A DNA stretch of 64,000 nucleotides from Acidobacteriota bacterium (GTDB lineage: Bacteria; Acidobacteriota; Vicinamibacteria; Vicinamibacterales; 2-12-FULL-66-21), in contig JBKPNQ010000080.1 in the NCBI GenBank assembly GCA_046732715.1, forward strand, positions 26-64,025. The letters run 5' to 3'. A program made the translations under genes and the position numbers. Positions 13,520-61,968 of the stretch are shown here, in pieces. The notes beneath the pieces were generated by a model. That model was not told the origin of the DNA. It did not search any database and saw only the letters and a program-made list of their open reading frames with translations. Numbering within the stretch: position 1 is the first letter of the stretch; every line of letters begins with the position of its first letter.

Positions 13520-13598
13520 CCAGTTACCAGTTACCAGTTGCCAGTTACCAGTGGCCAGTTCACAGTGCTGGAAACTGGGAACTCGAAACTGGCAACTC
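13520..13598. repeat. Heptad array family A (CCAGTTN), inverted arms forming a long imperfect hairpin
   Basis: Left arm ccagtta ccagtta ccagttg ccagtta ccagtgg ccagttc; right arm ctggaaa ctgggaa ctcgaaa ctggcaa; fills the ffh-rpsP spacer. Confidence 0.9.
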
Positions 13599-13602
13599 AC
13601 AC

Positions 13603-14961
13603 TCACCGGTTCATCAACGACTTCATTGCCCCGAGGCCGCCCTTCTTCTTGCCGAGTCCGGCCATCCCGCCAATCGCCTTGAGCATCTTCTTCATCTGCA
13701 CGAACTGCTTCAGCAGGCGATTGATTTCCTCGACTGACGTGCCGCTCCCCTTCGCAATCCGTTTACGGCGGCTGCCGTTGATCACCTGGTGATTGCGTCG
13801 TTCGTGCGGTGTCATCGAGTTGATCATCGCCTCGATTCGATCCAGCTGTTTGTCGTCGACCTTCTCGCGATTGGCCGCGAGCTCCTTCATGCCGCTCATC
13901 CCGGGCAGCATGCCGAGGATCTGCTCGAGCGGTCCCATCTTCTTGATCGTCCGCAGCTGGTCGCGGAAATCCTCCAGCGTAAAGTCGTCCTGACGGAGTT
14001 TCTTTTCGAGCTTCTGCGCGTCCTCGATGGACACCGCTTCTTCGGCTTTCTCAATCAGCGACAGCACGTCGCCCATGCCGAGGACACGCGACACGACCCG
14101 GTCGGGATGAAACGGCTCCAGGTCCTGCAGGCGCTCGCCGCTGCCGACGAACGCAATCGGAACGCCGACGACGCCGACGACCGACAGCGCCGCGCCGCCG
14201 CGGGCATCGCCGTCCATCTTCGAGAGCACGACACCGCTGATCCCGATGCGCCGGTTGAATTCGCCGGCGCTCTTGATCGCATCCTGGCCGGTCATCGCGT
14301 CGGCCACGAAGAGCCGATCGGTCGGCTCGACGGCCGCCTGGATCGCCTGCAGCTCGTTCATCAACTCATCGTCGATGTGAAGCCGTCCGGCGGTGTCGAC
14401 AATGACGGTATCGAAGCCGCTGTTCCGGGCTTCGGCCATCGCGCCGCGCGCCCGCCGTACCGGATCGAGATCCCCGGACGGATCGTGAACGCGAACGCCG
14501 GCCTGTTTTCCAACAACGTTGAGCTGCTCGATGGCGGCTGGGCGTCGAACGTCAGTCGAGACCAGAATCGGATGCTTTCCCTGCTTGGCCAGCCATCGCC
14601 CGAGTTTTCCGGCGGTGGTCGTCTTACCAGAACCCTGCAGTCCGAGCAGCAGGACGACCCGCGGGTGGGCCTGCGAAGCCGGCAACCCGCCGGTGGTCTC
14701 CCCGAACAATGCGAGCATCTCGTCCCGGACGATACGCACGACCTGTTGTGCGGGCGTCAGGCTCTTCAGCACTTCCTGATCGACGGCGCGATCGCGGACG
14801 CGGTCGATGAATGCCTTGACGACCTTGAAGTTGACGTCCGCTTCGAGCAGCGCCATGCGGATCTCGCGAAGCGCCGCCTCGACGGTCGTCTCGGTCAACC
14901 GGGCTTCGCCGCGGAGCGAGCGAAATACTCCCTGCAGTCGGTCGCTGAGCGATTCAAACAT
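13603..14961 (-). CDS. ffh: Signal recognition particle protein Ffh
   Basis: 452 aa; GLQGSGKTTT, DTAGRL, Met-rich M domain. Confidence 0.96.
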   Translation of the reverse strand: MFESLSDRLQGVFRSLRGEARLTETTVEAALREIRMALLEADVNFKVVKAFIDRVRDRAVDQEVLKSLTPAQQVVRIVRDEMLALFGETTGGLPASQAHPRVVLLLGLQGSGKTTTAGKLGRWLAKQGKHPILVSTDVRRPAAIEQLNVVGKQAGVRVHDPSGDLDPVRRARGAMAEARNSGFDTVIVDTAGRLHIDDELMNELQAIQAAVEPTDRLFVADAMTGQDAIKSAGEFNRRIGISGVVLSKMDGDARGGAALSVVGVVGVPIAFVGSGERLQDLEPFHPDRVVSRVLGMGDVLSLIEKAEEAVSIEDAQKLEKKLRQDDFTLEDFRDQLRTIKKMGPLEQILGMLPGMSGMKELAANREKVDDKQLDRIEAMINSMTPHERRNHQVINGSRRKRIAKGSGTSVEEINRLLKQFVQMKKMLKAIGGMAGLGKKKGGLGAMKSLMNR

Positions 14962-14975
14962 GTCGGTCCATCACT

Positions 14976-14996
14976 CCGAGGGGCTTCGCCCCTCGG
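14976..14996 (-). promoter_or_regulatory. Perfect 9-bp stem / 3-nt loop hairpin abutting the ffh Shine-Dalgarno
   Basis: Minus strand: ccgaggggc-gaa-gcccctcgg followed directly by agtgatggaccgacATG; the GGAG SD overlaps the 3' end of the stem. Confidence 0.6.
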
Positions 14997-15167
14997 ACTC
15001 CTCTACACGCTCTCTCGCGAGCCGCTCCGCCGGCTCGCTCCGTTCGCGTGGCTCGCTTCGGTGCGCTCGCTCGCGTTTTCTCTCGCGCAGCGTTGTCTCG
15101 CCATAGCACCGGTTGATCTGGCGGGTGCGGAGACGGGTCGCGTGGATCACTCGCGCGCTCGTTCGCC
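14994..15167. repeat. Diverged third copy of the CT-rich ~175-bp dispersed element
   Basis: cggactcctctacacgctctctcgc...gctcgctccgttcgcgtggctcgcttcgg...tcgcgcgctcgttcgcc aligns end to end with units at 1-383 (ends well conserved, middle diverged). Confidence 0.75.
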
Positions 15168-15298
15168 AAGTCTCCCGAATCGATTTCGAAACCGCTTCGA
15201 GTCCTCGCACGCCGCCATGGGAACGGCAGGCGGGGTCTAAAGAACCCACGCAGCACGAAACCGCCGGATTGCGTGCGAGGAGGTCGTCTAGACGCCTA

Positions 15299-15337
15299 AG
15301 CGCTTCAGACGCAAACGTTTATCGTAACTGAAGCGCT
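15299..15337 (-). terminator. 10-bp perfect inverted repeat 9 nt downstream of ribBA stop (possible terminator or processing hairpin)
   Basis: AGCGCTTCAG-19 nt-CTGAAGCGCT; no U-tract afterwards, hence low confidence. Confidence 0.3.
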
Positions 15338-15345
15338 GTTCGGTG

Positions 15346-16575
15346 TCAAACGGAAGTGAGCTTGTGGCCGAGTTTGGTTTTCTTGGTGGTCAGGTATCGC
15401 CGCGTGCTGTCGGATGCCGGAATCTCGAGCGGGAGCCACTCCTTGACCGACAGCTGATAACCCTCGATTCCAACCAGTTTTCGGGGGTTGTTCGAGAGGA
15501 GCCGCATGGAGCGAACGCCAAGGTCCTTCAAAATCTGAACCCCAATGCCATAGTCCCGCTGATCCGCCTTGAAACCGAGCCGCTCGTTTGCCTCGACCGT
15601 GTCGAGTCCCTGGTCCTGAAGTTCGTAGGCGCGAATCTTGTTCGAGAGCCCAATTCCGCGCCCCTCCTGATTCAAGTACAACAGCACCCCTCTGCCCTCG
15701 GTCGCAATCCGGTGCATCGCCGCGTCCAGTTGTGGACCGCAATCGCACCGCGCGGAGTGGAAGACGTCGCCGGTCAGGCAGCGCGAGTGCACGCGCACCA
15801 GCACATTTTCACCATCGCCGAGATCGCCCTTGACCAGCGCGACATGGGTTTCACGATCGATCACGCTTTCGAACGCAAACACCTTGAAGTCGCCGTGCTC
15901 GGTCGGGAGACTCGCGGTCGCGACTCGATGCACCAGCCCCTCGGTACGCAGCCGATACTGAATCAGGTCGGCCACGGTAATCATCAGCAGCTTATGGCGG
16001 CGGGCAAACTTCGTCAGCTCCGGCACCCGCGACATCGTCCCATCGTCGTTCATGATTTCGCAGATGACGCCGGCCGGATAAAGTCCGGCGATGCGGGCGA
16101 GGTCGACCGCCGCCTCGGTTTGGCCGGCACGCACGAGCACGCCGCCGTTGCGCGCCTTGAGTGGGAACATGTGGCCGGGACGCGCAAGATCGGACGGCCT
16201 CGTGCGGGGGTCGATGGCCGCAAGCACCGTGGCCGCGCGATCGCTTGCTGAAACACCAGTGCTCGTGACCGCTTTCGCATCGATCGACACGCTGAAGGCC
16301 GTACCAAGTCGCGCCGTATTGGGCCCCACCATCTGCGGCAGATCCAGCTCGGTGAGCCGATCTTCGGTCATCGGAATGCAGATCAAGCCGCAGCCATGTC
16401 TGGCCATGAAATTGACCGCCTCCGGCGTGATCTTCTCCGCAGCGATCGTCAGGTCTCCCTCGTTCTCGCGATCTTCATCATCAACGACGATGATCATCTG
16501 TCCATTGCGAATCGCCTCGACCGCGGCTTCAATCGGGGCGAAGGGTGACTTCTTCTTACGAGTTTTCGTAGCCAT
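15346..16575 (-). CDS. ribBA: Bifunctional 3,4-dihydroxy-2-butanone-4-phosphate synthase / GTP cyclohydrolase II
   Basis: 409 aa; DHBPS half (VVDDEDRENEGDL) and GCHII half (RCLTGDVFHSARCDCG). Confidence 0.95.
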   Translation of the reverse strand: MATKTRKKKSPFAPIEAAVEAIRNGQMIIVVDDEDRENEGDLTIAAEKITPEAVNFMARHGCGLICIPMTEDRLTELDLPQMVGPNTARLGTAFSVSIDAKAVTSTGVSASDRAATVLAAIDPRTRPSDLARPGHMFPLKARNGGVLVRAGQTEAAVDLARIAGLYPAGVICEIMNDDGTMSRVPELTKFARRHKLLMITVADLIQYRLRTEGLVHRVATASLPTEHGDFKVFAFESVIDRETHVALVKGDLGDGENVLVRVHSRCLTGDVFHSARCDCGPQLDAAMHRIATEGRGVLLYLNQEGRGIGLSNKIRAYELQDQGLDTVEANERLGFKADQRDYGIGVQILKDLGVRSMRLLSNNPRKLVGIEGYQLSVKEWLPLEIPASDSTRRYLTTKKTKLGHKLTSV

Positions 16576-16577
16576 GG

Positions 16578-16651
16578 CAAATCAACAATCTGCAATCACA
16601 ATCGACAATCCGCGATCGATAAAATCGCCAATCAGCAATCAATTATCGATC
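16578..16651. repeat. Heptad array family B (CAATCNN), single-armed, about 10 heptads
   Basis: caaatca acaatct gcaatca caatcga caatccg ... gccaatc agcaatc aattatc; spans the ribE-ribBA spacer and contains the ribE stop. Confidence 0.85.
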
Positions 16652-18311: not shown

Positions 18312-18323
18312 AGGCGATCGGGT

Positions 18324-18387
18324 AGTTCCCAGTTTCCAGTCTCCAGTTACCAGTTTCTCAACACTGGAAACTGGGAACTGGCAACTG
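18324..18387. repeat. Heptad array family A hairpin
   Basis: agttccc agtttcc agtctcc agttacc agtttc - tcaaca - ctggaaa ctgggaa ctggcaa ctg; fills the ftsY-ribD spacer. Confidence 0.9.
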
Positions 18388-18388
18388 A

Positions 18389-19312: not shown

Positions 19313-19318
19313 TGATCT

Positions 19319-19349
19319 CAGTTTCCAGTTCCCAGTTTCCTGTTTCCAG
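19319..19349. repeat. Heptad array family A, single-armed
   Basis: cagtttc cagttcc cagtttc ctgtttc cag, starts 7 nt upstream of the ftsY ATG. Confidence 0.85.
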
Positions 19350-19354
19350 CCATC

Positions 19355-19422
19355 GTCAATCGGCAATCTCGATCCCGCAATCGGCACCCGCCACAATCAG
19401 CAATCAACAATCGCCAATCGAT
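19355..19422. repeat. Heptad array family B, single-armed, directly abutting the family A array
   Basis: gtcaatc ggcaatc tcgatcc cgcaatc ... agcaatc aacaatc gccaatc gatc; ends at the gpsA stop. Confidence 0.85.
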
Positions 19423-20996: not shown

Positions 20997-21015
20997 AGTT
21001 CACGAATACTCAGTC

Positions 21016-21071
21016 GGTTTGGGTTTTGGGTTTTTTGGGGTTTCGTTCTTCAAAACCTAAAACCTAAAACG
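21016..21071. repeat. Heptad array family F (GGGTTTT / AAAACCT) hairpin
   Basis: ggtttgggttttgggttttttggggttt - cgttcttc - aaaacctaaaacctaaaacgg; thpR-plsY spacer. Confidence 0.85.
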
Positions 21072-21086
21072 GACAAGCGTTAGCAC

Positions 21087-21656
21087 CTACTCTAATGGTA
21101 TCCGCAGGAGGGGTTCGTAGTTGGCGCCTTTGGGCGAGAGGCGGCTTTGAAACACGGTGACGTGGGTCGTTCGGCAACGTCCCGCGACCGCTGACCACGT
21201 TTGCAGCATCTCGCGAAGCGCGCGATTTGGGATCGCGCGGGAGACGCTCTTCACGCGAGCGATCGTCACGTGCGCGGAGTAGGCGCGCCGTTCCGGCTCA
21301 AACCCAAGCGGCCCCAGCCTGATTGCCAGTTCCGAGTGTATGCGACGGAGCGACGCCAGACCCGCAGCGACGCCCAACCAGAACACTCGGGGCGGGCCCG
21401 ACGGCGGGAACGCGCCCAGGCCGCCGATCTCGAGATCGAAGGCAGGGACTTCGTATGGACGTTCCAGCACTTGTCGCAGCTCTTCACTGCGAGCGTCGCC
21501 GATCTCGCCGATAAACCATAACGTGATATGCAAGTTGGACGCGGCAATCCATCTCGCGTCGACACGCTCTGAGAGCTGACGCCTCAGGGATTCGGATATG
21601 CGCGCGGCGGCCTCTCTGACGCGATCGTCCAGTTCGATACCAACAAAGAGGCGCAC
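21087..21656 (-). CDS. thpR: RNA 2',3'-cyclic phosphodiesterase (2H family, ThpR/LigT)
   Basis: 189 aa; two HxT/Sx motifs (HITLWF, HVTIARV). Confidence 0.88.
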   Translation of the reverse strand: MRLFVGIELDDRVREAAARISESLRRQLSERVDARWIAASNLHITLWFIGEIGDARSEELRQVLERPYEVPAFDLEIGGLGAFPPSGPPRVFWLGVAAGLASLRRIHSELAIRLGPLGFEPERRAYSAHVTIARVKSVSRAIPNRALREMLQTWSAVAGRCRTTHVTVFQSRLSPKGANYEPLLRIPLE

Positions 21657-21668
21657 GGGAATCTCAGG

Positions 21669-21753
21669 AATTGCTGGTTTTCGATTGTTGATTGCTGGTC
21701 GATTGGATCACTTCATTCAACAATCAACAATCAACGATCAGCGATCGGCAATT
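21669..21753. repeat. Heptad array family B hairpin
   Basis: aattgctggttttcgattgttgattgctggtcgattg - 12 nt - caacaatcaacaatcaacgatcagcgatcggcaatt; cinA-thpR spacer, contains the cinA stop. Confidence 0.88.
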
Positions 21754-25213: not shown

Positions 25214-25293
25214 GAATTTTTAGGTTCCCACGCAGAACCGCAGCGATTATGAGGCCGAATGGTCGACGGACACAACTCAAAAGCTTCGGCTAT

Positions 25294-25378
25294 CAGCTTC
25301 CAGCTTCCAGCGAGTTCAGTTTCCAGTTTCCAGTTTCCAGTTGCCAGTTTCGCGAATCGCGAATCGCGAATCGCGATT
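25294..25378. repeat. Composite single-armed heptad arrays: family A (25294-25350) abutting family D CGCGAAT x4 (25351-25378)
   Basis: cagcttc cagcttc cagcgag ttcagtt tccagtt tccagtt tccagtt gccagtt t | cgcgaat cgcgaat cgcgaat cgcgatt; divergent spacer. Confidence 0.9.
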
Positions 25379-25413
25379 GCAGATCGCCACCGCCTCCGTG
25401 ATAGAAAATCCTC

Positions 25414-26304
25414 ATGCCAATTGTCGAGTCCATCCCCAACGTCAGCGAGGGGCGACGCCCCGAAGTTGTCGAGCGACTGGCCGCGGCCATTCGGGCCGTG
25501 CCGGGAGCACGGTTGCTCGACTACTCGTCCGATCCATCTCACAACCGATCGGTGTTCACGCTCGTCGGCGATGCGGACGCGGTCAAGGCGGCGACGCTCG
25601 CGTTGTTCGCGGCGGTGCTCCCGGTCATTGATCTGCGCACTCATCGAGGCGAGCATCCCCGACTGGGTGCGATAGACGTGGTGCCATTCGTCCCCATCGA
25701 GGGAATCACGATGGAACAGTGTGTGGCGCTGGCCAAGGATGTGGGCGCTTCGATCGCAGAACAGTTCCGTGTCCCTGTTTACCTGTATGAGGAGGCATCC
25801 ACTAACCCTGCGCGCAAGAACCTCGAAGACATCCGTCGTGGCGAATTCGAGGGGCTGACCGAGAAGATGCGTGGCGACGGCTGGATCCCGGACTTCGGTC
25901 CGCGAAATCCTCACCCGTCTGCTGGAGCGAGCGTGGTTGGGGCGCGAATGCCACTGATTGCCTACAACATCAACCTCGCCACCAACCGACTCGATGTGGC
26001 GAAGAAAATCGCGGCGGCGATTCGATACAGCAGCGGTGGGCTGCGGTACGTCAAGGCGGCCGGCTTCATGCTCGAGGATCGTCAAATCGTCCAGGTGTCG
26101 ATGAACCTGACGAACTACCAGAAGACCCCGATCTTCAGAGTGTTCGAGATGGTGAAGCGTGAGGCCGAGCGGTACGGGGTGTCGATTCTCGAGAGTGAAA
26201 TCGTGGGTCTCGTCCCGTCGGCCGCGCTGACGTCAGCGGCCGAGTTCTATTTGCAGCTTGAAAGGTTTGGGCCAGAACAAATACTGGAAAACAAGTTGAA
26301 ATGA
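25414..26304 (+). CDS. Glutamate formimidoyltransferase (formiminotransferase domain protein)
   Basis: 296 aa; MPIVESIPNVSEGRR N-terminus and overall FtcD N/C-subdomain pattern. Confidence 0.85.
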   Translation: MPIVESIPNVSEGRRPEVVERLAAAIRAVPGARLLDYSSDPSHNRSVFTLVGDADAVKAATLALFAAVLPVIDLRTHRGEHPRLGAIDVVPFVPIEGITMEQCVALAKDVGASIAEQFRVPVYLYEEASTNPARKNLEDIRRGEFEGLTEKMRGDGWIPDFGPRNPHPSAGASVVGARMPLIAYNINLATNRLDVAKKIAAAIRYSSGGLRYVKAAGFMLEDRQIVQVSMNLTNYQKTPIFRVFEMVKREAERYGVSILESEIVGLVPSAALTSAAEFYLQLERFGPEQILENKLK

Positions 26305-26346
26305 GTTGCGAGCTTCCCGCGACTCGCGAACTAGCGACTTGCGACA
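26305..26346. repeat. Heptad array family D variant (GCGACTN), 6 heptads
   Basis: gttgcga gcttccc gcgactc gcgaact agcgact tgcgaca; fills the convergent spacer. Confidence 0.75.
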
Positions 26347-26349
26347 AGG

Positions 26350-27726
<1,377 letters not shown>

Positions 27727-27742
27727 CGGTGTTGTCGCAAGT

Positions 27743-27814
27743 AGTTGCCAGTTGCCAGTTGCCAGTTACCAGTTGGACGAAAAGACACACCGCTGGAAAC
27801 TGGTTACTGGAAAC
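27743..27814. repeat. Heptad array family A hairpin
   Basis: agttgcc x3 agttacc agttgg - 16 nt - ctggaaa ctggtta ctggaaa c; between kinase stop and regulator start. Confidence 0.9.
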
Positions 27815-27822
27815 ATCCAGAG

Positions 27823-33189: not shown

Positions 33190-33294
33190 GAATTGCTGAT
33201 TGTTGATTGTTGATTGAGGATCCGGCAGGTCGTTTACCCAAACGAGCGATCGGCATTTCACCAATCAGCATGAGCAATCGTCAATCAGCAATTC
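33190..33294. repeat. Heptad array family B hairpin with 13-bp perfect outer stem
   Basis: gaattgctgattgttgattgttgattga - 43 nt - ccaatcagcatgagcaatcgtcaatcagcaattc; starts 1 nt after the stop codon. Confidence 0.88.
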
Positions 33295-33320
33295 CCTGAT
33301 CTCTCATTCCCTGATCTCTC
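33291..33320. repeat. Perfect tandem duplication of a 15-mer (attccctgatctctc x2)
   Basis: 33291-33305 and 33306-33320 identical; ends 2 nt before the purC -35 box. Confidence 0.9.
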
Positions 33321-33322
33321 AG

Positions 33323-33351
33323 TTGACGTCGCCTCGCGTGTGCCGTAAGCT
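33323..33351 (+). promoter_or_regulatory. Candidate sigma-70 promoter for purC (TTGACG-17 nt-TAAGCT)
   Basis: -35 33323-33328, 17-nt spacer, -10 33346-33351; the track ORF start (TTG 33323) is the -35 box itself. Confidence 0.5.
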
Positions 33352-33373
33352 TTGCCGTCTCGCGAGGTCACCT

Positions 33374-34287: not shown

Positions 34288-34497
34288 GTGCGCGATCAAC
34301 TCGAGAAGCTCGTCCAGGAACTCCTCGAAAAGGGAGTGCTCTACGACGAGGCGCGCCGGGAATTCGAGAAGATGTTCATCGCCCGCGCGCTCCAGCGCTC
34401 GAAAGGCAACGTCGGCAACGCCGCGGAGATGCTGGGGCTTCACCGCAACACGATCGCCAGGAAGATTTCGGAGTACCGGATCAAGCGAGTCAGCTAA
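34288..34497 (+). CDS. Small Fis-family helix-turn-helix DNA-binding protein
   Basis: 69 aa; C-terminal GNVGNAAEMLGLHRNTIARKI Fis-type HTH. Confidence 0.72.
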   Translation: MRDQLEKLVQELLEKGVLYDEARREFEKMFIARALQRSKGNVGNAAEMLGLHRNTIARKISEYRIKRVS

Positions 34498-34500
34498 ATC

Positions 34501-34602
34501 GGTGCATTGGTGAATTGGTGACTTGGTGAAATTGCCGTCGCACGCGCTACCGCGCGTGCTTTGAAAGCGCGGCGGTAGCCGCGCGGTGCGAATTCACCAA
34601 TT
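34501..34602. repeat. Heptad array family E (TTGGTGA) with matching distal arm (gaattcaccaatt) enclosing a GC-rich inner hairpin
   Basis: ggtgcat tggtgaa ttggtga cttggtg aaattg ... cgcacgcgctaccgcgcg-11 nt-cgcggcggtagccgcgcggtgcg ... gaattcaccaatt. Confidence 0.75.
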
Positions 34603-36816: not shown

Positions 36817-36846
36817 CGCTCGCGGCTCGCGATTCGCGGCTCGCAG
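36817..36846. repeat. Heptad array family D variant (CTCGCGG/CTCGCGA/TTCGCGG), 4 heptads
   Basis: ctcgcgg ctcgcga ttcgcgg ctcgcag between the groEL stop and the terminator. Confidence 0.7.
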
Positions 36847-36880
36847 GCCGGCTGGGAGAGAATCTCAGCCGGCCTTTTTT
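36846..36880 (+). terminator. Rho-independent terminator of groEL
   Basis: 12-bp stem ggccggctggga / tctcagccggcc (one G-U), 5-nt loop, then TTTTTT. Confidence 0.85.
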
Positions 36881-37326: not shown

Positions 37327-37361
37327 CTGGGAGCTGGAGGCCGGCAGCGGGAAGCTGGGAG
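37327..37361. repeat. Heptad array family G (CTGGGAG), 5 heptads
   Basis: ctgggag ctggagg ccggcag cgggaag ctgggag; spacer between the two TonB-type genes. Confidence 0.75.
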
Positions 37362-37365
37362 CTTT

Positions 37366-38941: not shown

Positions 38942-40105
38942 GTGGGAACGATGGACGCCATCGACGTCGCGATCATCGGCGGCGGGCCCGCCGGCTGCCG
39001 CGCCGCGTGGCGCCTTGCGCGCGCCGGAACGCGCGTGGCGCTGTTCGACGGAAGCCATCCGCGCGAGAAGCCGTGCGGTGGCGGTGTCACCGGGCGAGCG
39101 CTCGATCTCGTCCGCGACGCGATCGACGTCGCTTCGCTCCGTGCGGTGGCCATCGACGACGTCGCCTTTGAGCATGGCTCACGCCGGGCACGCGTCCAGC
39201 TCGGCGCCGGAACCGGACCAACTCCACAACTCACCGTCGCATCCCGCACGGCCTTTGATGGGACACTGCTCGCTGCTGCGGTCGGAGCGGGCGCGACGTT
39301 TCACGCCGAACGAGTGACGAGCATCGTCCCCGAGCGCGATGGCTGGATTATCGCGACAGCGCAAACCGTGACGCGCGCCGACTGGCTGCTCGGCGCCGAC
39401 GGGCCGAACAGCTTCGTTCGTCGACGAGTCGGTCAGCCGTTCGCACGGGCCGACCTGTCAATCGCGACCGGGTTTTTCGTTCATGGTATCGAATCGCGCA
39501 GCGTCGCCATCGCGTTCGAAGACGAGCCCCCTGGATACCTCTGGTCGTTTCCACGCCCCGACCACCTGGCGGTTGGTGTGTGCGCGCAGGCCGATGCGTC
39601 ACACGCCGCACCACTGCAGGCCGCAGCCTCCAAGTGGATTGCGCAACACGTCCAAGGATCCTTCACGCTGGAGCGATACAGCTGGCCCATCCCTTCACTG
39701 CGCGAATCGACCATCGAACGGGAACGACCGTTCGGCGAGCGCTGGATGCTGCTCGGCGACGCCGGCGGCATGGTCGATCCGATCACGCGCGAAGGGATTT
39801 TCTTCGCTCTGCTGTCCGGCGATGCTGCTGCCGACAGCCTCCTCGACGCAGTCAGGCCCGGCGTTCGATATGGCGACCGGATCCGGGCGTCGGTGTACGA
39901 CGAACTCCTCCGTGCGGCGCGCCTCAAGGCGCGCTTTTTCAATCCACGCTTTACCGCGCTTCTCGTGCGCGCCCTCCAGCAGAGCGCGTCCATCCGCGAG
40001 ATCATGGCGGACCTCGTCGCCGGCCGACAGACGTATCGCGGATTACGGCGGCGTCTGCTCGGGACACTGCAGGTGAGGTTGTTGGTGGAGATGATGAAGA
40101 GTTGA
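38942..40105 (+). CDS. FAD-dependent oxidoreductase, geranylgeranyl-reductase-like
   Basis: VAIIGGGPAGCRAA dinucleotide fold, KPCGGGV motif. Confidence 0.8.
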   Translation: MGTMDAIDVAIIGGGPAGCRAAWRLARAGTRVALFDGSHPREKPCGGGVTGRALDLVRDAIDVASLRAVAIDDVAFEHGSRRARVQLGAGTGPTPQLTVASRTAFDGTLLAAAVGAGATFHAERVTSIVPERDGWIIATAQTVTRADWLLGADGPNSFVRRRVGQPFARADLSIATGFFVHGIESRSVAIAFEDEPPGYLWSFPRPDHLAVGVCAQADASHAAPLQAAASKWIAQHVQGSFTLERYSWPIPSLRESTIERERPFGERWMLLGDAGGMVDPITREGIFFALLSGDAAADSLLDAVRPGVRYGDRIRASVYDELLRAARLKARFFNPRFTALLVRALQQSASIREIMADLVAGRQTYRGLRRRLLGTLQVRLLVEMMKS

Positions 40106-40189
40106 AAGTGAAAAGTGAAAAGTTAAAAGTGTTGGCTGCTCATATTTGAGCTTTGCACTTTTAACTTTTAACTTTTCACTCTCACTTCA
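40100..40189. repeat. Heptad array family C (AAAGTGA/AAAGTTA) hairpin between convergent genes
   Basis: agttgaaagtgaaaagtgaaaagttaaaagtg - 24 nt - cacttttaacttttaacttttcactctcacttca; both flanking stop codons lie inside the arms. Confidence 0.9.
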
Positions 40190-43203: not shown

Positions 43204-43224
43204 GACTTTTAACTTTTAACTTTC
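43204..43224. repeat. Heptad array family C, single-armed (3 heptads)
   Basis: gactttt aactttt aactttc; encodes the last residues KVKS and the stop of rnr; 3 nt from the selB start. Confidence 0.8.
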
Positions 43225-48406: not shown

Positions 48407-48442
48407 GCGACTCCTCGCGTAGGGCATGTAAACGGTAAAACC

Positions 48443-48471: not shown

Positions 48472-48493
48472 ACGCGACAGTATGCCGTAACCG

Positions 48494-49384: not shown

Positions 49385-49387
49385 GTC

Positions 49388-50047: not shown

Positions 50048-51489
50048 GCGGGAGTCTTCTCCAGTTCGCGCCGGACGAGTGAGTTCACTAGCGCCGGATT
50101 CGCCTTACCACCCATGGATTTGATGACCTGTCCGACGAGAAATCCGTAAGTCTGCTTCTTCCCAGCTCGATACTGCTTGACGGCGTCGGCGTGTGCGGCG
50201 AGCACCTTCTGCACAGCCGCCTCGACCGACGCTTCATCGTCAATCCGAGCAAGTCCTTCGGCTTCGACGATAGCGGCGGCGGATAGGCCGGAGCCGTACA
50301 TCTTTTCGAAGACCTCTTTGGCCGTGGGGCCGCTTATCGTGCCGGCGTCCACGAGCCGGATCAGTCCCGCCAAAGCCTCGGGCGTCAGCGCCACGGCCTC
50401 TATATCGGCGCCAAGCTCGTTCAACTTGCGGGTGAGCTCTCCCATGATCCAGTTGCTGGCTGACTTCGCGTTGCCCGCCGCGGCGGCCGTGTGTTCGAAA
50501 TAGGTCGCCAGCGCCTGCGATTGCGTCAGCACCCCGGCGTCGTAGTCGGGCAAGGCGTACTGCTCGACAAACCGTCGCCGACGCGCGTCGGGTAGCTCCG
50601 GAAGCGTTCGCTTCGCCTCTTCAATCGTGGCGGCCGCAATCCGCAGCGGCGGGAGATCCGGCTCGGGGAAGTACCGGTAATCGTGCGCTTCTTCTTTACT
50701 CCGCATCGACAACGTGCGGCCGGCGGCGGTGTCCCATAACCGGGTCTCGTGTTCAACGGTTCCGCCTGATTCGATCACAGCGATCTGACGCTCGATCTCG
50801 TGGTCGAGCGCGCGCTGCACGTGACGGAAGGAATTGAGATTCTTGATCTCGGTCTTGACGCCAAATGGCTGCCCGGGGCGCCGCACCGAGATGTTGGCGT
50901 CGCAACGAAGGCTGCCCTCCTCCATGTTGCCGTCGGTCACCCCCGTCGCCACCAGCACCGCACGCATGCGGCTGAAATACTCGGCCGCTTCCGCGGCCGA
51001 TCGGACGTCCGGGTGGCTGACGATTTCAATGAGCGGCACGCCGCTGCGATTGAAATCGAGCGCGGTCATGCGGTCCGAGTCGGGCAAACCCTCGTGCAGG
51101 GATTTGCCGGCGTCCTCTTCGAGGTGAACGCGAATGATCCCGACGCGGCGCGACTCGCCGCGCGACTCGAATTCGAGCGCGCCATCAGTCGCGAGCGGCA
51201 GGTCGTACTGGGAGATCTGATAGCCCTTCGGCAGGTCAGGATAGAAGTAGTTCTTCCGCGCAAAGATCGACGTCTGATGGACCGTGCAGCCGAGCGCGAG
51301 AGCGGCCTTGATCGCCAGTTCCACCGCACGCCGATTGAGCACCGGCAGGGCGCCTGGCAGCCCGAGGCATACCGGACAGGTGTTGACGTTGGGCGGCGCA
51401 CCGAACCGCGTGCTGCAACCGCAGAACAGTTTGCTCTCGGTCTGAAGCTGTGTATGGATCTCGAGACCGATGACAGGCTCAAAGGGCAT
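50044..51489 (-). CDS. gatB: Aspartyl/glutamyl-tRNA amidotransferase subunit B
   Basis: PVIGLEIHTQL, NRSGVPLIEIV; trimmed from 51543 (heptad-array translation) to ATG 51489. Confidence 0.95.
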   Translation of the reverse strand: MPFEPVIGLEIHTQLQTESKLFCGCSTRFGAPPNVNTCPVCLGLPGALPVLNRRAVELAIKAALALGCTVHQTSIFARKNYFYPDLPKGYQISQYDLPLATDGALEFESRGESRRVGIIRVHLEEDAGKSLHEGLPDSDRMTALDFNRSGVPLIEIVSHPDVRSAAEAAEYFSRMRAVLVATGVTDGNMEEGSLRCDANISVRRPGQPFGVKTEIKNLNSFRHVQRALDHEIERQIAVIESGGTVEHETRLWDTAAGRTLSMRSKEEAHDYRYFPEPDLPPLRIAAATIEEAKRTLPELPDARRRRFVEQYALPDYDAGVLTQSQALATYFEHTAAAAGNAKSASNWIMGELTRKLNELGADIEAVALTPEALAGLIRLVDAGTISGPTAKEVFEKMYGSGLSAAAIVEAEGLARIDDEASVEAAVQKVLAAHADAVKQYRAGKKQTYGFLVGQVIKSMGGKANPALVNSLVRRELEKTPA

Positions 51490-51574
51490 TGCTGATGGTC
51501 GATTGCTGATGTTCGATTGTTGATTGTAGTCGGCATTCAACAATCAGCAATCGAAAATCAGCAATTGCAATCAG
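51488..51574. repeat. Heptad array family B hairpin
   Basis: attgctgatggtcgattgctgatgttcgattgttgattg - 11 nt - caacaatcagcaatcgaaaatcagcaattgcaatcag; spans from the gatB start codon to the upstream stop codon. Confidence 0.9.
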
Positions 51575-52638: not shown

Positions 52639-52656
52639 AACCCGTGGTTTCCCCTT

Positions 52657-52677
52657 GCTTTTAACTTTTAACTTTTT
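52657..52677. repeat. Heptad array family C, single-armed (3 heptads)
   Basis: gctttta actttta acttttt, immediately after the upstream stop codon. Confidence 0.8.
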
Positions 52678-56514: not shown

Positions 56515-56686
56515 GGGTGTCTGTCCTTCAGCGGGCTTGCGCGTCAGGGTCGCGCTGCCCGGGAGGACACATGAGGCAAGAGCCGCGCCGCAGCCGCTCA
56601 CCCTGTGCGGCACGACTCAAGCCGCTGAGCACGCGTCACTTCTGGCTGATTGAAAAGGTGTGAAGCGGCGCTCGTGTTGCACGATT

Positions 56687-56716
56687 GAAACACGAAGATG
56701 TTTCGTCGGTGAAACA
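56687..56716. promoter_or_regulatory. Interlocked palindromes GAAACA-N6-TGTTTC-N6-GAAACA (candidate activator binding site)
   Basis: gaaaca 56687-92, tgtttc 56699-704, gaaaca 56711-16; 170-200 nt upstream of the hybrid kinase start. Confidence 0.4.
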
Positions 56717-56720
56717 TGAC

Positions 56721-56783
56721 TCGCAATTCGCAATTCGCGGTTCGCAATTCGCGGTTCGCAATTCGCGGCCCGCAATTCGCGTT
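56721..56783. repeat. Heptad array family D (TCGCAAT/TCGCGGT), 9 heptads with 14-nt super-period
   Basis: tcgcaat tcgcaat tcgcggt tcgcaat tcgcggt tcgcaat tcgcggc ccgcaat tcgcgtt. Confidence 0.92.
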
Positions 56784-56804
56784 CAAAGCGGGGAGCTGGA
56801 AGCT

Positions 56805-58151: not shown

Positions 58152-58223
58152 CAGGATTGGCGGCGCCACGGCTGGGGTTGTGGCGCGCTAAGTGTATACC
58201 GGGGTTGAACCGATAAAGCGTAC

Positions 58224-59216
58224 ATGAAAAGGTTGGCGTGTCTTTTGGCGCTTCTCATCGCCGCCCCAGCGTGGCTCATGAGCTGCTCCGCCCCGGCGAC
58301 GCGCGCGACGCTCCCTTCATCGAGGCCAGCGGCTCCTCCGACAATCCGAGTAGGCCTCCGCGACGGAAACCGGGTCACGATCCGAAAGGTGCCCTTCGAG
58401 ACGTATGTGCAGGCGGCGATCCTATCGGAGTTTGCGCCGCCGGCCGGCGATCCCGACGTTGTCGAGCACATGCTCGAGGTCCAGGCTGTTATCGGCAGGA
58501 CCTATGCCCTCGCACATCTCGGACGACATGAATCGGAAGGCTTCGACGTCTGCTCGACGACACACTGCCAGCTGTTCGAGCCGTCGCGGCTCACCAGGTC
58601 GAAGTGGGCTCCACAGTCCGCCGAAGCGGTCCGCCGAACCACCGCAACAGTCCTTTGGTTTGGCAGTTCCCCGGCCGATGCGCTTTACCACTCTGACTGC
58701 GGCGGCAGGACAAGCCGGGCTGACGATGTGTGGCGCGGATTGGGACGTCCGTACCTGGTTTCAGTCCCCGACGATGGACCCGCCGAAAAAGCGCATGCGG
58801 CTGTGTGGCGGTATGAGGCGGCCGACGCGGCCCTCATCGCCGCTCTCAACAAGGACTCGCGAACGCGCATCGGTGCTCGCCTCACCGGGATTCAGGTACT
58901 CGATCGAGATCAAACAGGCCGCGCCGAACAGATCGCGCTACACGGCTCTCAGGAACGAGTCGTCAGAGGCGAAGACCTGCGCGAGGTTCTGGGACAGAGC
59001 TTCGGCAGTCGATCGATCAAGAGCACCTGGTTTACCGTCGAGCACACCGGCGGCGCGTATCTTTTTGAAGGCCGGGGATTCGGGCACGGCGTCGGACTCT
59101 GTCAGGCGGGAGCGCTTGCCCGCATCCGCGCAGGGGCTAAATTGCCAGCCGTGCTGGACGTCTATTTTCCGGGTACCAAGCTCGTGACGCTACGCCAACC
59201 CAGGACAAACCCCTAA
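58224..59216 (+). CDS. SpoIID/LytB-domain protein (amidase enhancer family)
   Basis: 330 aa; signal peptide, YHSDCGGRT and GHGVGLCQ.GA motifs. Confidence 0.85.
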   Translation: MKRLACLLALLIAAPAWLMSCSAPATRATLPSSRPAAPPTIRVGLRDGNRVTIRKVPFETYVQAAILSEFAPPAGDPDVVEHMLEVQAVIGRTYALAHLGRHESEGFDVCSTTHCQLFEPSRLTRSKWAPQSAEAVRRTTATVLWFGSSPADALYHSDCGGRTSRADDVWRGLGRPYLVSVPDDGPAEKAHAAVWRYEAADAALIAALNKDSRTRIGARLTGIQVLDRDQTGRAEQIALHGSQERVVRGEDLREVLGQSFGSRSIKSTWFTVEHTGGAYLFEGRGFGHGVGLCQAGALARIRAGAKLPAVLDVYFPGTKLVTLRQPRTNP

Positions 59217-59405
59217 GCCTGTCCCGCCGAAGCGCCACGCGCGTAAAGACGGACGAACCGCCACGCGCGAACGCGATCCCCTGCCGTCCCTGATTTCTGC
59301 CTCACCTGTGACGGTTTCCCTCTATATAATTAGGCTTGGAGTCGCTTACACTTTCGCCCGTATCTTCACCCTCTAGTAAACGGCCCCTGGTTCGAGGCGT
59401 ATTTC

Positions 59406-60071
59406 ATGACAGGAGCTCAGGCAGCGGGCTTTAGCGGCCGCGAGGCGGACAGCGGTGCCGCGTCCGCGGTCAAGGCCCTGCAGGCCGAAGGGCGGCTCGC
59501 CGAAGCGCGCGAACGGTACGCGGAACTGGTGGCCAGGCACCAGCGCCGGGCGTCGCGAATCGCGTTTCATTACATGCGCGATGTCGCCGAGGCGGACGAG
59601 GCGGTTCAGGATGCCTTCGTCAAGGCGTATTCCCACCTCTCCTCGTTCCGTGAAGAGCTCCCGTTCGAAGTCTGGTTCACGCGCATCCTTATCAACGGGT
59701 GCCTGGATCGAATCAAGGCGCGGACTCGCCGCGAGCGGTGGATCGCGCCGATGCCGGACGGGCCGGCTGGAGAAAGGGATTTCGGTGAGCGTGTCGCCGG
59801 CAGCGACCCCTCTCCCGAAGATCAGTTGCTCGCACGCGAACGCCGTGAGCGGCTCGCTCAGGCTCTGGCAAAACTCCCCGAGCGTCAGCGCTCGGTGTTC
59901 ATGCTGAGCCACTACGAGGGATGCACGTCGCGGGAAGTAAGCGCGCTGACCGGGCTGAACGAGTCGACCGTGCGTGTGCACCTCTTCCGCGCGATTCGCA
60001 AGCTGCGAACGCTGCTGGTCGACCCGCGCGCGGGCGAGGCGAAAGTGGAGAAACGCCGTGTCCATTCTTAA
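59406..60071 (+). CDS. ECF-type RNA polymerase sigma factor
   Basis: 221 aa; region 2 (ADEAVQDAFVKAY...FEVWFTRILIN) and region 4 (REVSALTGLNESTVRVHLFRA). Confidence 0.87.
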   Translation: MTGAQAAGFSGREADSGAASAVKALQAEGRLAEARERYAELVARHQRRASRIAFHYMRDVAEADEAVQDAFVKAYSHLSSFREELPFEVWFTRILINGCLDRIKARTRRERWIAPMPDGPAGERDFGERVAGSDPSPEDQLLARERRERLAQALAKLPERQRSVFMLSHYEGCTSREVSALTGLNESTVRVHLFRAIRKLRTLLVDPRAGEAKVEKRRVHS

Positions 60072-60678
60072 TCGATTGAGGCTCAGTGCCCATCTCGACG
60101 ACGACGCGCTTGTCGCGATCTGGACCGATGAAGCGACCAGCGGCGTTCGACAGGCACATCCTCATCTCGAGAGTTGCCCGCCGTGCCGGGCTCGGTTCGT
60201 CGATCTCTCTTCCTGGCTGCAAGGCGTGCAGGTCGACGCCACTGCTGAAGCGGACGAGCACTTTTCCCCCGAGCGCCTGGCCGCCCAACACGCCCTGATC
60301 TTCCGGCGGCTCGAAGCGGCCGAGCGGCCGGCACGTGTGATCGCGTTTCCGCGTTTCGCACAGCCGCTGACGTCGCGAACCTCTCACGCCTCCCGCTGGA
60401 TCGCCGCCGCGGCAGCCGCAGGGCTCATCGTCGGGGTCGGCGTGGGGCAACTGATGGATCTTCGTCACCCGTTCACGGCCCAGCCGGCGACGACAACTCA
60501 GGCCCGTATCAGCACGGCGAGAGGTCCAATCGGACGCGATCGTTTCGTCCAGCCGGTAAGCGACACCCGCGACGAGACGTTTCTCTCGGAACTCGACGCC
60601 TCGCTCTCCCGCGCCGGTGTCCCCGAGCTTCGCGCACTCGACGCGTTCACCCCGCGCGCCGACGATCAATCCAGGTAG
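60058..60678 (+). CDS. Anti-sigma factor with zf-HC2 motif
   Basis: GTG 60058 overlaps the sigma gene's 3' end; HLESCPPC (H-x3-C-x2-C), TM WIAAAAAAGLIVGVGVG. Confidence 0.62.
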   Translation: MSILNRLRLSAHLDDDALVAIWTDEATSGVRQAHPHLESCPPCRARFVDLSSWLQGVQVDATAEADEHFSPERLAAQHALIFRRLEAAERPARVIAFPRFAQPLTSRTSHASRWIAAAAAAGLIVGVGVGQLMDLRHPFTAQPATTTQARISTARGPIGRDRFVQPVSDTRDETFLSELDASLSRAGVPELRALDAFTPRADDQSR

Positions 60679-60683
60679 GTTAG

Positions 60684-61904
60684 GTGAGCGCCCCGCAGCC
60701 CTTGATTTTTCGCAAGGGCCTCGACATGAAGGAAGCCGTCGCGGGCGAGCTCGCAGCGGCCTACGATAGCGCGCTCGTCGATCGCGTCCGCGCGAGCGAC
60801 TTCCAATTCACAAGCGGCCGCCTGATCGTCCATCTCGCCCGCGAATTCGGGTTCTGCTACGGCGTCGATCGCGCCGTGGATTATGCCTACCAGGCGCGGC
60901 GGCGGTTTCCAGGCCGGAACGTCTTTCTGACCGGCGAGATCATCCACAATCCGTACGTCAACGATCGGCTGCGGAGTGAAGGCATCCGCTTCCTGACGGA
61001 TCCGGGCGAACATGCCGACCGCCTCGGAAAAGACGACGTCGTGATTCTTCCGGCGTTTGGCGTGACCGTTCGTGAAATGGCCCGCCTGTCAAACCAGGGA
61101 TGCACGCTCGTCGACACGACCTGTGGATCGGTCTTGAACGTCTGGAAGAACGTCGTCCGCTACGCGCAGGACGGATACACCGCAATCATTCACGGAAAAG
61201 TCAAACACGAAGAGACACGGGCGACCGCATCGCAGGCACTCAAGTATCCGCAGGGCCGCTACCTTGTCGTCCTCGATCGCGTCGAGGCGGCGATTGTCTG
61301 CGACTACATCCGGCATGACGGCGATCCGGCGGCATTGCTGGAGCGATTCGCGGGAGCCTTCTCGCCCGGATTCGACCCGGACGTCGATCTCCAGCGCGTC
61401 GGGTGCGCCAATCAGACGACGATGCTGATGACGGAGTCGCTGGAAATTGGTGAGATGTTTCGGGCCGCCATGCGCGACCGCTACGGCGAGGAGGCGCTCG
61501 CGTCGCGCTTCCGCGCATTCGACACCATCTGCAGTGCGACGCAGGAACGACAGGACGCGGTGATTGCGCTGCTCGAGCACCAGACACCCGATTTGATGCT
61601 CGTGATCGGGGGCTATAACAGCAGCAACACCTGTAATCTTGCGAGAATCTGCGCGGCCAAGGTGCGGACGTATCACATCGCCGACCCCGGCTGTCTTCTG
61701 TCAGGGGACGAGATCCGCCACCGGCCGGTGGGGGCGCCGTCAACCACGTCCGGTCTCGAGGAAACGTCCCGTGGATGGCTACCGCCGACCGGCACCCTGG
61801 TCGTGGGCCTGACGGCCGGCGCCTCGACGCCCAACAACATCGTCGGTGAAGTGATTCGAAAGCTGGAAGGCTTCTGTGCTGACACACAGAAAGTTAAAAG
61901 TTAG
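60684..61904 (+). CDS. ispH: 4-hydroxy-3-methylbut-2-enyl diphosphate reductase (long form)
   Basis: 406 aa; FGFCYGVDRAV, TGEIIHNP, CATQERQDA-type Cys motifs (ICSATQERQ), GGYNSSNT; last residues KVKS and stop lie in a heptad array. Confidence 0.9.
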   Translation: MSAPQPLIFRKGLDMKEAVAGELAAAYDSALVDRVRASDFQFTSGRLIVHLAREFGFCYGVDRAVDYAYQARRRFPGRNVFLTGEIIHNPYVNDRLRSEGIRFLTDPGEHADRLGKDDVVILPAFGVTVREMARLSNQGCTLVDTTCGSVLNVWKNVVRYAQDGYTAIIHGKVKHEETRATASQALKYPQGRYLVVLDRVEAAIVCDYIRHDGDPAALLERFAGAFSPGFDPDVDLQRVGCANQTTMLMTESLEIGEMFRAAMRDRYGEEALASRFRAFDTICSATQERQDAVIALLEHQTPDLMLVIGGYNSSNTCNLARICAAKVRTYHIADPGCLLSGDEIRHRPVGAPSTTSGLEETSRGWLPPTGTLVVGLTAGASTPNNIVGEVIRKLEGFCADTQKVKS

Positions 61905-61968
61905 GAAAGAGGCTGGGGGCGATCCTGTCTTATTACTTCTAACTTCTGACTTCTAACTTTTAACTTTC
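61888..61968. repeat. Heptad array family C, asymmetric hairpin between convergent genes
   Basis: agaaagttaaaagttagg - 29 nt - acttcta acttctg acttcta actttta actttc. Confidence 0.85.

Follow-up and report, generated by a model that had tools for sequence, protein, structure and literature searches.

Genes and repeat arrays of the window

The stretch of DNA analysed here (the window) is a 64-kb segment of contig JBKPNQ010000080.1 from the genome of a soil bacterium of the order Vicinamibacterales (Acidobacteriota), with a G+C content of 64%. This placement agreed with the best Ffh and FtsY relatives, which were Vicinamibacterales or Acidobacteriota metagenome-assembled genomes (MAGs). Many of its intergenic spacers contain short tandem arrays of 7-nt units (heptads), and an earlier reading of this DNA, referred to below as the original prediction, had listed 21 of them. 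Because naive lists of open reading frames (ORFs) and gene calling based on third-codon-position G+C content were too noisy at 64% G+C, a codon-model gene map was used. Thirty genes flanking arrays were confirmed with Pfam, including those encoding Ffh, S16, RibBA, RibE, RibD, FtsY, GpsA, PlsY, LigT, CinA, FTCD, a histidine kinase and its sigma-54 regulator, PurC, GroES/EL, two TonB_C proteins, SelB, RNase R, GatB, further two-component proteins and IspH. A search of the whole window against Rfam gave no match at the gathering score, and no tRNA or tmRNA was detected in it by scanning.

Tandem Repeats Finder returned about 30 period-7 rows between 13,520 and 61,966, with repeat arrays at or beside every coordinate of the original prediction. 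A lag-match scan identified 12 period-7 runs against 0-1 per period for periods 3-6 and 8-13. On the codon-model gene map, 16 period-7 arrays were located in 5.05 kb of spacer and one in 58.9 kb of coding DNA, an enrichment of about 70-fold, and 200 Markov shuffles of the window spacers produced no period-7 array at all. The pooled autocorrelation of the spacers had its maxima at lags 7, 14, 21 and 28 (0.351, 0.334, 0.296 and 0.274, respectively, over a background of about 0.255) and that of coding DNA showed period 3 only. Under strict criteria, period 7 covered 13% of the spacer bases and 0.19% of the coding bases, whereas lags 5, 6, 8 and 9 covered at most 1.2% of the spacers. Both the intergenic enrichment and the excess of period 7 over periods 6 and 8 had been anticipated and were borne out. 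The absence of arrays from coding sequences, also claimed, held for the bulk of coding DNA, but one array was coding and those at 43205 and 61888 overlapped upstream stop codons. Periods 4, 5, 8, 10 and 11 would be equally unwelcome in coding DNA and only period 7 was enriched, so the bias goes beyond exclusion from genes and therefore reflects a period-specific generating or selecting process. The original prediction had argued for such a process, but the bias itself is not new, since a survey by Mrázek et al. in 2007 had already reported it, according to what PMC4679880 and PMC4692102 relate of that work.

When the sequence was read together with its autocorrelation, an array was found in about 18 of the 31 spacers that measure 15 nt or more in the 13.5-62 kb interval, and in none of the eight in the first 13 kb of the window. 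Arrays were 3-10 units long and reached a density of about 4 per kb of spacer, some 27 times that of unrelated loci. The spacers concerned were co-directional or convergent, and only one of eight divergent spacers (25214-25413) carried arrays, as had been noted from the start. The arrays are thus kept out of coding DNA and scarcely occur in divergent spacers, which bear promoters. In two other metagenomes, three contigs (L081, L082 and L083; comparison loci are designated by number) reproduced the arrays of the ffh|rpsP spacer, those downstream of groEL and those beside tonB with equal copy number, and homologous arrays occurred in more than 10 independent MAGs and metagenome contigs. Matching arrays in independent assemblies show that they are not assembly artefacts and constitute a genuine feature.

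Arrays along the window

The ffh|rpsP spacer (13509-13602) is occupied by an array at 13520-13598, in which six CCAGTTN units (13520-13560) are followed by four inverted CTGGNAA units (13568-13598), forming a hairpin. The z score of its RNA fold was -3.2; it is identical in L081 and L082 and has orthologous arrays in L001, L088, L090 and L094. The ribE|ribBA spacer (16576-16642) holds about eight degenerate CAATCNN units (16578-16640), read as GAUUGNN in the transcript and with a lag-7 match of 0.52, which adjoin the ribBA start codon. Between ftsY and ribD (spacer 18312-18388) there is another hairpin (18324-18387; z -5.3) of five CCAGTTN and 3.6 inverted AACTGGN units, of which orthologues exist. 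Two direct arrays succeed each other in the gpsA|ftsY spacer (19313-19422; arrays 19319-19419), namely CAGTTTC in 4.4 copies (19319-19349) and CAATCNN in about nine (19355-19419).

The ligT|plsY spacer (20997-21086), which is 8-10 nt long in relatives, contains a hairpin (21016-21070; z -2.4) of 2.4 TTTGGGT and 2.7 inverted AAAACCT units. Its left part (21016-21043, TTTGGGT/GGGGTTT) includes four runs of three or four G residues, a possible G-quadruplex, and is the only such array of the window. Inverted GATTGNN and CAATCNN arrays form the hairpin (21669-21746; z -4.2) of the cinA|ligT spacer (21657-21751). In the divergent spacer mentioned above, two or three TTCCAGC, five CAGTTTC and 3.9 TCGCGAA units (25294-25376) lie head to tail in a single register, with no excess fold (z -0.2). 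The convergent spacer between the FTCD gene and a sigma-54 regulator gene has a weak array of 3.7 GCGACTN units (26305-26345). The spacer between the histidine kinase gene and its sigma-54 regulator gene (27727-27822) carries 4.7 AGTTGCC units plus inverted units of the CTGGAAA type in a hairpin (27743-27812), and the orthologous hairpins are built of CCAGCTN or TCAGCNN units. The gene map and Pfam confirmed this pair, together with ffh|rpsP, ftsY|ribD and ribE|ribBA, as the array-bearing operon pairs originally proposed.

Upstream of purC (spacer 33190-33373), 3.6 GATTGNN and five inverted CAATCNN units build a hairpin (33190-33292; z -4.1), immediately followed at 33291-33321 by a perfect 15-nt direct repeat, ATTCCCTGATCTCTC, in 2.1 copies. 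The array at 34497-34530, located just 3' of a gene of the Fis helix-turn-helix type and upstream of the groES promoter, consists of 4.2 copies of TTGGTGAN and has period 8; the statement that the period is always 7 was therefore incorrect. Directly 3' of the groEL stop codon there are 3.9 GCTCGCG units (36817-36844), and between the two TonB_C genes five degenerate CTGGGAG units (37327-37362), a CCAGCTN variant of the main family; both arrays are identical in L083.

The convergent spacer at 40106-40181 harbours a hairpin (array 40100-40181; z -9.9) of 3.9 AAAGTGA and 3.4 inverted ACTTTTA units that reaches from stop codon to stop codon. At the RNase R|selB junction, 2.7 ACTTTTA units (43204-43223) overlap the RNase R stop codon. 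The spacer between a response regulator gene and gatB (51490-51570) is filled by inverted GATTGNN and CAATCNN arrays forming a hairpin (51488-51570; z -6.3) with a 14-nt higher-order repeat. A further 2.7 units of CTTTTAA (52657-52676) separate a sigma-54 activator gene from a response regulator gene; with those at 26305 and 43204 this is one of the weak arrays (2.7-3.7 copies). The array at 56721-56781, 6.6 copies of TCGCRNT, is better described as 3.9 copies of the 14-mer TTCGCAATTCGCGG (95% match), is nearly self-complementary and had a z score of -2.1. Finally, in the convergent spacer after ispH (arrays 61887-61966), two AAAGTTA units lie on the stop codon (61887-61903) and are followed by 4.6 inverted ACTTCTA units (61935-61966).

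Unit families and their fixed core

The units of the window belong to about five families, and not to the seven unrelated ones first proposed: two of the latter are one-base variants of each other (CCAGCTN and CCAGTTN, the former including CTGGGAG at 37327 and TTCCAGC at 25294) and another is the period-8 repeat. The four main families occur at 4-7 loci each (CCAGYTN at seven, GATTGNN at five, AAAGTTA and TCGCGNN at four). The anatomy of the main family was computed on 29 arrays with 109 CCAGYTN units. CCAG was 93-99% invariant, position 5 was T or C, position 6 was T in 87% of units and position 7 was random; 48 of the 91 mismatches between neighbouring units fell on position 7 (chi-square p = 8e-23). 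Families in general had a fixed core of 5-6 nt with one or two free positions, and 14-mers of higher order matched better than 7-mers in Tandem Repeats Finder. A few identical cores reappeared in non-orthologous spacers and in different genomes, and this recurrence, together with the fixed core and free position, indicates that the sequence matters besides the period. Core hexamers were neither avoided nor specially placed in coding DNA, and a restriction-like targeting of the cores was rejected for lack of such avoidance.

Hairpins

About half of the array-bearing spacers contained two inverted arrays, the proportion originally estimated, and these folded into strong hairpins (z -3.2 to -9.9 against shuffles), while array-free control spacers were mostly unstructured. 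The stems consist of 6-bp blocks with 1x1 mismatches between them, and the loops measure about 10-60 nt (about 150 nt in L001). At position 5, both arms had the same T or C state in 16 of 16 hairpins (Fisher p 1.6e-4), with several independent switches, and in an L088 hairpin both arms were altered, from CCAG/CTGG to TCAG/CTGA. Core positions were 94% paired and the free base was pairable in 46% of cases, with 47% expected. The free base is thus neither selected nor copied between arms, and simple templated copying from arm to arm is disfavoured on the same figures.

The stems of 20 operon-internal cases had their 5' foot at a median of 0 nt from the stop codon and their 3' foot at a median of 8 nt from the next start codon, the ribosome-binding region being partly within the stem. 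This placement fits a stem that would be opened by the terminating ribosome. An excess of G·U pairs was traced to G/U-rich direct arrays. The possibility that the hairpins are intrinsic terminators was rejected, as they are not followed by a U-tract; even the hairpin at 40106, with U-rich arms, has no trailing U-tract. A terminator scan flagged only 36845-36875 (+ strand) and 36912-36896 (- strand), located after groEL and tonB and apart from the arrays, and the number of terminators in the window was not above that in shuffles.

Turnover and period of the arrays among relatives

The comparison set comprised 14 Vicinamibacteria loci around ffh (Ffh 59-85% identical) and 66 controls from other phyla, to which 11 syntenic loci of closer relatives (FtsY 89-96% identical) were added; the turnover of the arrays was read from 20 relatives with synteny to the window. 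Several Vicinamibacteria loci were array-free. Window spacers of 67-110 nt (ribE|ribBA, ftsY|ribD, cinA|ligT, ligT|plsY and gpsA|ftsY) often measured -10 to 40 nt and had no array in relatives, or else held a different array, a plain GC hairpin or a hairpin like those of repetitive extragenic palindromic (REP) sequences, with a GTAG head. For instance, the 95-nt cinA|ligT spacer of the window corresponds to one of 5 nt in L084 and L085. Three loci sharing an identical FtsY (L084, L085 and L086) differed in copy number at gpsA|ftsY, with 4, 5 and 6 GATTGNN units and 6, 3 and 4 AACTGGN units, respectively, and the extra GATTGCT unit of L086 is a copy of its neighbour. The ftsY|ribD spacer of the same loci contains a heptad hairpin in L084 and a REP-like hairpin in L085 and L086. 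In L090 one arm has grown to about 17 units and the other has five. The variation of copy number between orthologous spacers expected by the original prediction was therefore found, although strain-level variation surfaced only through the series of FtsY homologues: the near-identical L081-L083 showed no difference in copy number, and exact-protein matches of window genes gave only nearly or fully identical contigs, two queries giving none.

No target-site duplication was seen on comparing filled and empty sites, and loops and flanks were unrelated, which bears out the claim that the arrays are not copies of a single mobile repeat. Arrays sometimes supply the stop codon of the host gene (TGA from TGCTGAT, TAG from GGTAGCT) and can reach a start codon lacking a Shine-Dalgarno sequence, as in ribBA. 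Taken together, the short orthologous spacers, the strain-variable copy number, the merging with stop codons and the lack of target-site duplications favour slippage in situ over transposition. Arrays arise, grow, shrink and vanish in situ, with a copy number that varies between strains.

Among spacer arrays of the window's clade (the window, L084, L087, L088, L090, L092 and L094), 58 had period 7, two period 8 and none period 9. In L001 the corresponding numbers were 4, 2 and 3, and in L003 and L004 together 1, 7 and 0, so that the clade and this last pair differed in their use of periods (Fisher p = 3e-7). The 66 unrelated loci, too, had period 7 as their commonest spacer period (23 arrays, other periods having 3-7), at an array density per spacer base of about 1/27 of that of the window. 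A metagenome scan with the L004 octamer matched mostly unrelated low-GC contigs, and in high-GC contigs the AACCAAA core was found with period 8, 9 or 10, a single contig sometimes having more than one of them; a lineage-fixed period 8 was not established on these data. The 9-mer ATTGCCAAG and the 8-mers AGTGCTGC, GGTCCATR and AATAACCA form inverted pairs in distant Vicinamibacterales, in part in the same spacers (L001 5666-5823 and 9688-10000; L003 9796-9889 and 11350-11397; L004 1432-1548 and 6128-6216).

Gene content and orientation around some of these spacers also change. Between cinA and plsY, the window's clade, L004 and L009 possess a ligT/thpR gene of the 2'-5' RNA ligase family (21087-21656 in the window), which L001, L003 and L006 lack; L001 has in its place a 355-nt spacer with inverted octamer arrays. 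The formiminotransferase (FTCD) gene (25414-26304) is inverted with respect to its neighbours in L090 (3375-4271) and L092 (3221-4114), and the array-rich spacers flanking it switch among divergent, convergent and co-directional arrangements between close relatives.

Other repeats and promoter-like elements

Further repeats were observed in the region. The window begins (1-383) with a tandem duplication of a 207-bp unit (1.9 copies, 96% identity) whose interior is rich in CGCT/GCTCGCTC microrepeats. A GC-rich second type of repeat, rich in GCTCGCTC and GAGCGAGC and with a period of about 5 or 14, is located at 11581-11633 (trmD|rplS) and 15033-15076 (ribBA|ffh). Read in the sense of the transcript, a GC hairpin comes after these tracts (GGCGGGGTGCAGGGGACCCCGCC at about 11552-11574); the composite of tract and hairpin is kept in L088 (17367-17493) and absent from most relatives, where the spacer has 5-8 nt. 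The GTAG-headed REP-like GC hairpins (GTAGGGCGGRGTCT...AGACCCYGCCC) were found in L085 (4047-4105), L084 (6810-6916) and L003 (11348-11483), and they occupy spacers that hold heptad hairpins in other strains.

At 15321-15349 (- strand) lies a sigma-70-like promoter, TTGACA-17-TACGAT, which shares bases with the ribBA stop codon. Close relatives have conserved, upstream of ffh, the surrounding motif TTACGATAAACGTTTGCG with a short inverted repeat (CTTCAG...CTGAAG) on its flanks; its conservation is looser in L001, L003, L004 and L009. The element is probably the promoter or leader of ffh.

Origin and possible role of the arrays

We interpret the arrays, with moderate confidence, as heptanucleotide long simple sequence repeats (SSRs) of the Vicinamibacterales spacers, akin to cyanobacterial repeats of the short tandemly repeated repetitive (STRR) type: dispensable fillers driven by slippage, with post-transcriptional effects of the REP kind. 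Strand slippage during replication in a 7-nt (and 14-nt) register would account for their growth, and each array would be individually dispensable, in the manner of REP sequences and bacterial interspersed mosaic elements (BIMEs). Where two inverted arrays are present, the transcript, or single-stranded DNA, can fold into a long stem that bridges the spacer between the stop codon of one gene and the ribosome-binding site of the next, and any effect of an array would be exerted after transcription. An intercistronic or 3' stem-loop could shield the upstream mRNA from 3' exonucleases, and the stem could hide the ribosome-binding site of the next gene until the ribosome terminating upstream melts its foot. 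The fixed core with its free seventh base hints at a putative sequence-specific trans-acting factor, which might be a binding protein or a requirement of propagation.

Several observations weigh against this interpretation. The other half of the array spacers is direct and without excess structure. Stem feet at stop and start codons are equally expected if the array grew within a spacer that was tiny to begin with. In sense and antisense, the folds of inverted-array hairpins were about equally stable, and in a count of cases sense was better in 19 and antisense in 14 (p 0.08), so constraints at the RNA and DNA levels are indistinguishable. That arrays are dispensable at each site examined argues against a strong function, and slippage and drift leave the fixed core, the random seventh base and the seeding of new spacers unexplained. 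The sample, moreover, is one 64-kb window and one syntenic region of its relatives.

The arrays might, first of all, be a neutral by-product: the replisome would slip preferentially in a 7-nt register (the polymerase-footprint idea of Mrázek), mismatch repair would miss 7-nt loops and arrays would build up where they do no harm, with no function and no factor. Dispensability, quick turnover and copy-number polymorphism between strains are what it predicts, and the prevalence of period 7 in unrelated loci, the excess of heptanucleotides in most genomes (as related in PMC4679880) and the less efficient repair of loops longer than 3 nt (PMC4060949) agree with it. However, mismatches would then be expected evenly over the unit, and more than half fell on one position; random seeds would scarcely yield equal units at 4-5 loci or across genomes, and the two arms of the hairpins co-vary. 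The period 8 of several families in L003 and L004, and the coexistence of periods 7 and 8-9 in one Geobacter genome (PMC2700814), are awkward for a fixed polymerase footprint. A wholly neutral origin was considered rather unlikely.

It is less probable still that the arrays are binding platforms for proteins whose subunits would each touch about 6 nt, in a register of 7 nt (on RNA, examples would be cold-shock-domain, S1 or KH proteins; on DNA, nucleoid proteins), forming a genome-wide, mostly post-transcriptional network. At least four unrelated cores in one genome would require several binders, transcripts contain both orientations, and the same spacers are array-free in close relatives, the housekeeping genes at their sides having no common theme. 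Core motifs are neither depleted nor specially placed in coding DNA, and no candidate protein emerged. Nevertheless, the combination of fixed core and free base is characteristic of a contacted motif and its linker, and the core is kept across species while copy number and free base drift. Direct arrays adjoin start codons without a Shine-Dalgarno sequence (ribBA and ftsY), as the TAACTGA repeats of Beggiatoaceae do (PMC4679880). The Geobacter arrays have been read as sites of global regulators (PMC2700814), and deletion of heptamer repeats in Nostoc alters expression (bioRxiv 10.1101/2022.06.06.494920).

The predominance of period 7 in the window's clade and of periods 8-9 in sister lineages (L003 and L004, with 7, 8 and 9 mixed in L001) would also be compatible, on small numbers, with a lineage-specific register-setting machinery, either a protein or an activity of repair or propagation, that recognises a 6-nt core and leaves exactly one free base, the period being an inherited trait of the cell and not of each repeat family. 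The mixed periods in Geobacter and in the metagenome matches weaken this proposal, which we regard as quite improbable; were it true, the Vicinamibacterales arrays would render the decades-old heptamer puzzle testable.

A non-autonomous mobile hairpin, mobilised in trans by a transposase encoded elsewhere and with arms that are heptads by chance, was judged very unlikely. Such an element would resemble a miniature inverted-repeat transposable element (MITE) or a REPIN, a hairpin formed by a REP doublet, and close relatives do differ in the presence of whole array-hairpins, members of one family are scattered over many spacers, the inverted arms resemble REPINs, and the niche is shared with the GTAG-headed REP-like hairpins that substitute for them in L085, L086 and L003; in Geobacter, insertion sequence (IS) elements lie at fixed distances from comparable arrays (PMC2700814). 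Yet conserved termini, conserved loops and target-site duplications are all lacking, the arms vary in length and are unequal (as in L090), many arrays are only direct, and at 25294-25376 two families stand head to tail in one register. Host stop codons are incorporated in arrays, unit changes occur in place, and no transposase was found among the 30 flanking genes scanned in the window. An artefact of assembly or sequencing, suggested by nothing but the general difficulty of assembling repeats, is hardly credible in view of the equal arrays and homologues described above.

The window is an unusually dense case with fast turnover, arrays being present in about 60% of the spacers along 48 kb. 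Births, losses and changes of unit and copy number are directly readable, as many relatives, at graded levels of divergence, have been sequenced, and three constraints beyond simple slippage become visible: the fixed core with its free seventh base, the co-variation of arms and the recurrence of cores in new spacers. The arrays inflate operon-internal spacers and may alter the mRNA stability or translational coupling of housekeeping genes. They are also a source of strain-level length markers, and they can mislead gene callers because long ORFs cross them.

Comparison with known repeat systems

Phase-variable contingency SSRs, found in promoters or 5' coding regions of surface or virulence genes whose expression they turn on and off, do not correspond to the arrays, which lie outside coding sequences and between housekeeping genes (ffh, rpsP, rib, ftsY, groEL, gatB and ispH). 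Like REP, BIME and REPIN sequences (PMC2817692, PMC3116915), they occupy 3' ends and operon-internal spacers, rarely promoters, form hairpins and inverted doublets, and are dispensable. However, a REP is one imperfect palindrome, 20-40 nt long, that has a conserved GTAG head and is moved by REP-associated tyrosine transposases (RAYTs, IS200-like Y1 enzymes), and the window has tandem heptads with no conserved head or loop. In Escherichia coli, REPs act as mRNA stabilisers.

Heptanucleotides are the most abundant class of long SSRs in most genomes, the richest including those of Burkholderia, cyanobacteria, actinobacteria and Xanthomonas, and it has been proposed that about 7 nt contact the polymerase and favour slippage (Mrázek et al. 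2007, according to PMC4679880 and PMC4692102). The arrays of the window agree with this class, as it is summarised in those papers, in the excess of period 7, the intergenic location, the scattered, lineage-specific spread and the slippage origin proposed. The survey is statistical, and the same summaries contain no description of a core with a free base, of co-varying arms or of the present density. No report of heptamer arrays in Acidobacteria was found in the literature searched, and to this extent the original prediction, which knew of no precedent in a high-GC genome of this kind, holds; nevertheless, the high-GC Xanthomonas, Burkholderia and Geobacter metallireducens are known cases.

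The Xanthomonas arrays (GGGANTN, some in inverted pairs) vary between species at the same spacer (PMC4692102). These units, GGGAATC and GGGGAYT in Xanthomonas and Nostoc, resemble those described here as intergenic heptamers with conserved and variable positions whose length and sequence vary at one spacer, but they are G-rich and form quadruplexes, of which only the small GGGTTTT array at 21016 would be capable in the window. Marine Beggiatoaceae, like certain cyanobacteria and Bacteroidetes, have direct TAACTGA repeats, often just upstream of a start codon (PMC4679880). TAACTGA matches the NAACTGG strand of the main family at six of seven positions, and is likewise intergenic, in 2-6 copies, and often placed at start codons without a Shine-Dalgarno sequence. 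It constitutes a single family, almost always in forward orientation, with 169 direct sets and one inverted, in contrast to the several families and roughly one half of inverted pairs found here.

The closest anatomy is that of the paired arrays of Geobacter metallireducens, in which classes 1-3 (GTTGCTYN in four copies, TCTCCGTS[Y] in three and MTYCTGA in five) comprise 24, 21 and 8 pairs on opposite strands at variable distance, the proB-proA spacer being one example; G. sulfurreducens lacks them, and they were read, without a test, as DNA sites of integration host factor (IHF)/HU or of a global regulator (PMC2700814). Both systems have 3-5 tandem units of 7-9 nt with degenerate last positions, opposite-strand pairs and an intergenic location that includes operon-internal spacers, the sister species having something else in the same spacer. 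The degenerate terminal position and the opposite-strand pairs were found in the window, and the Geobacter consensus sequences were not. Unit sequences thus differ, and periods 7 and 8-9 coexist in Geobacter, whereas the ratio is 58:2 for period 7 in the window's clade. In L054 (8592-8717), a Desulfuromonadales MAG, 14 copies of heptamers (CAGGAGC/CAGAGGA/TAGAGGA) precede three of AGTGAGG, an array consistent with the Geobacter-type elements of PMC2700814.

Heptamer tandem repeats have reportedly been known since 1990, when Mazel et al. are said to have described the STRRs of heterocystous cyanobacteria. Their consensus heptads are reportedly CCCCAGT, TTGGTCA and CAACAGT; the window units (CCAGYTN, GATTGNN, TCGCGNN and AAAGTTA) are different, and the arrays here are short. 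As the host belongs to the Vicinamibacterales and not to the heterocystous cyanobacteria, and the units differ, an assignment to STRR1-3 as named families was rejected. The phylum is thus another one, and the G+C content is about 41% in Nostoc PCC 7120 (PMC4692102) against 64% here. In other respects the analogy drawn by the original prediction is apt: STRRs are 7-bp repeats that can form hairpins inside an operon, between hupS and hupL, where a role in stability or translational coupling was proposed (PMC2670836), and Nostoc has several heptad families near start codons whose deletion changes expression (bioRxiv 10.1101/2022.06.06.494920). The window likewise has several families of 7-nt units per genome, intergenic and operon-internal, capable of forming hairpins and in part near start codons. 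It also shares with long SSRs and STRRs at least three tandem units, an intergenic occurrence above chance, dispersed families and a strain-variable copy number, and the arrays are therefore a dense addition to the known, poorly understood heptamer repeats.

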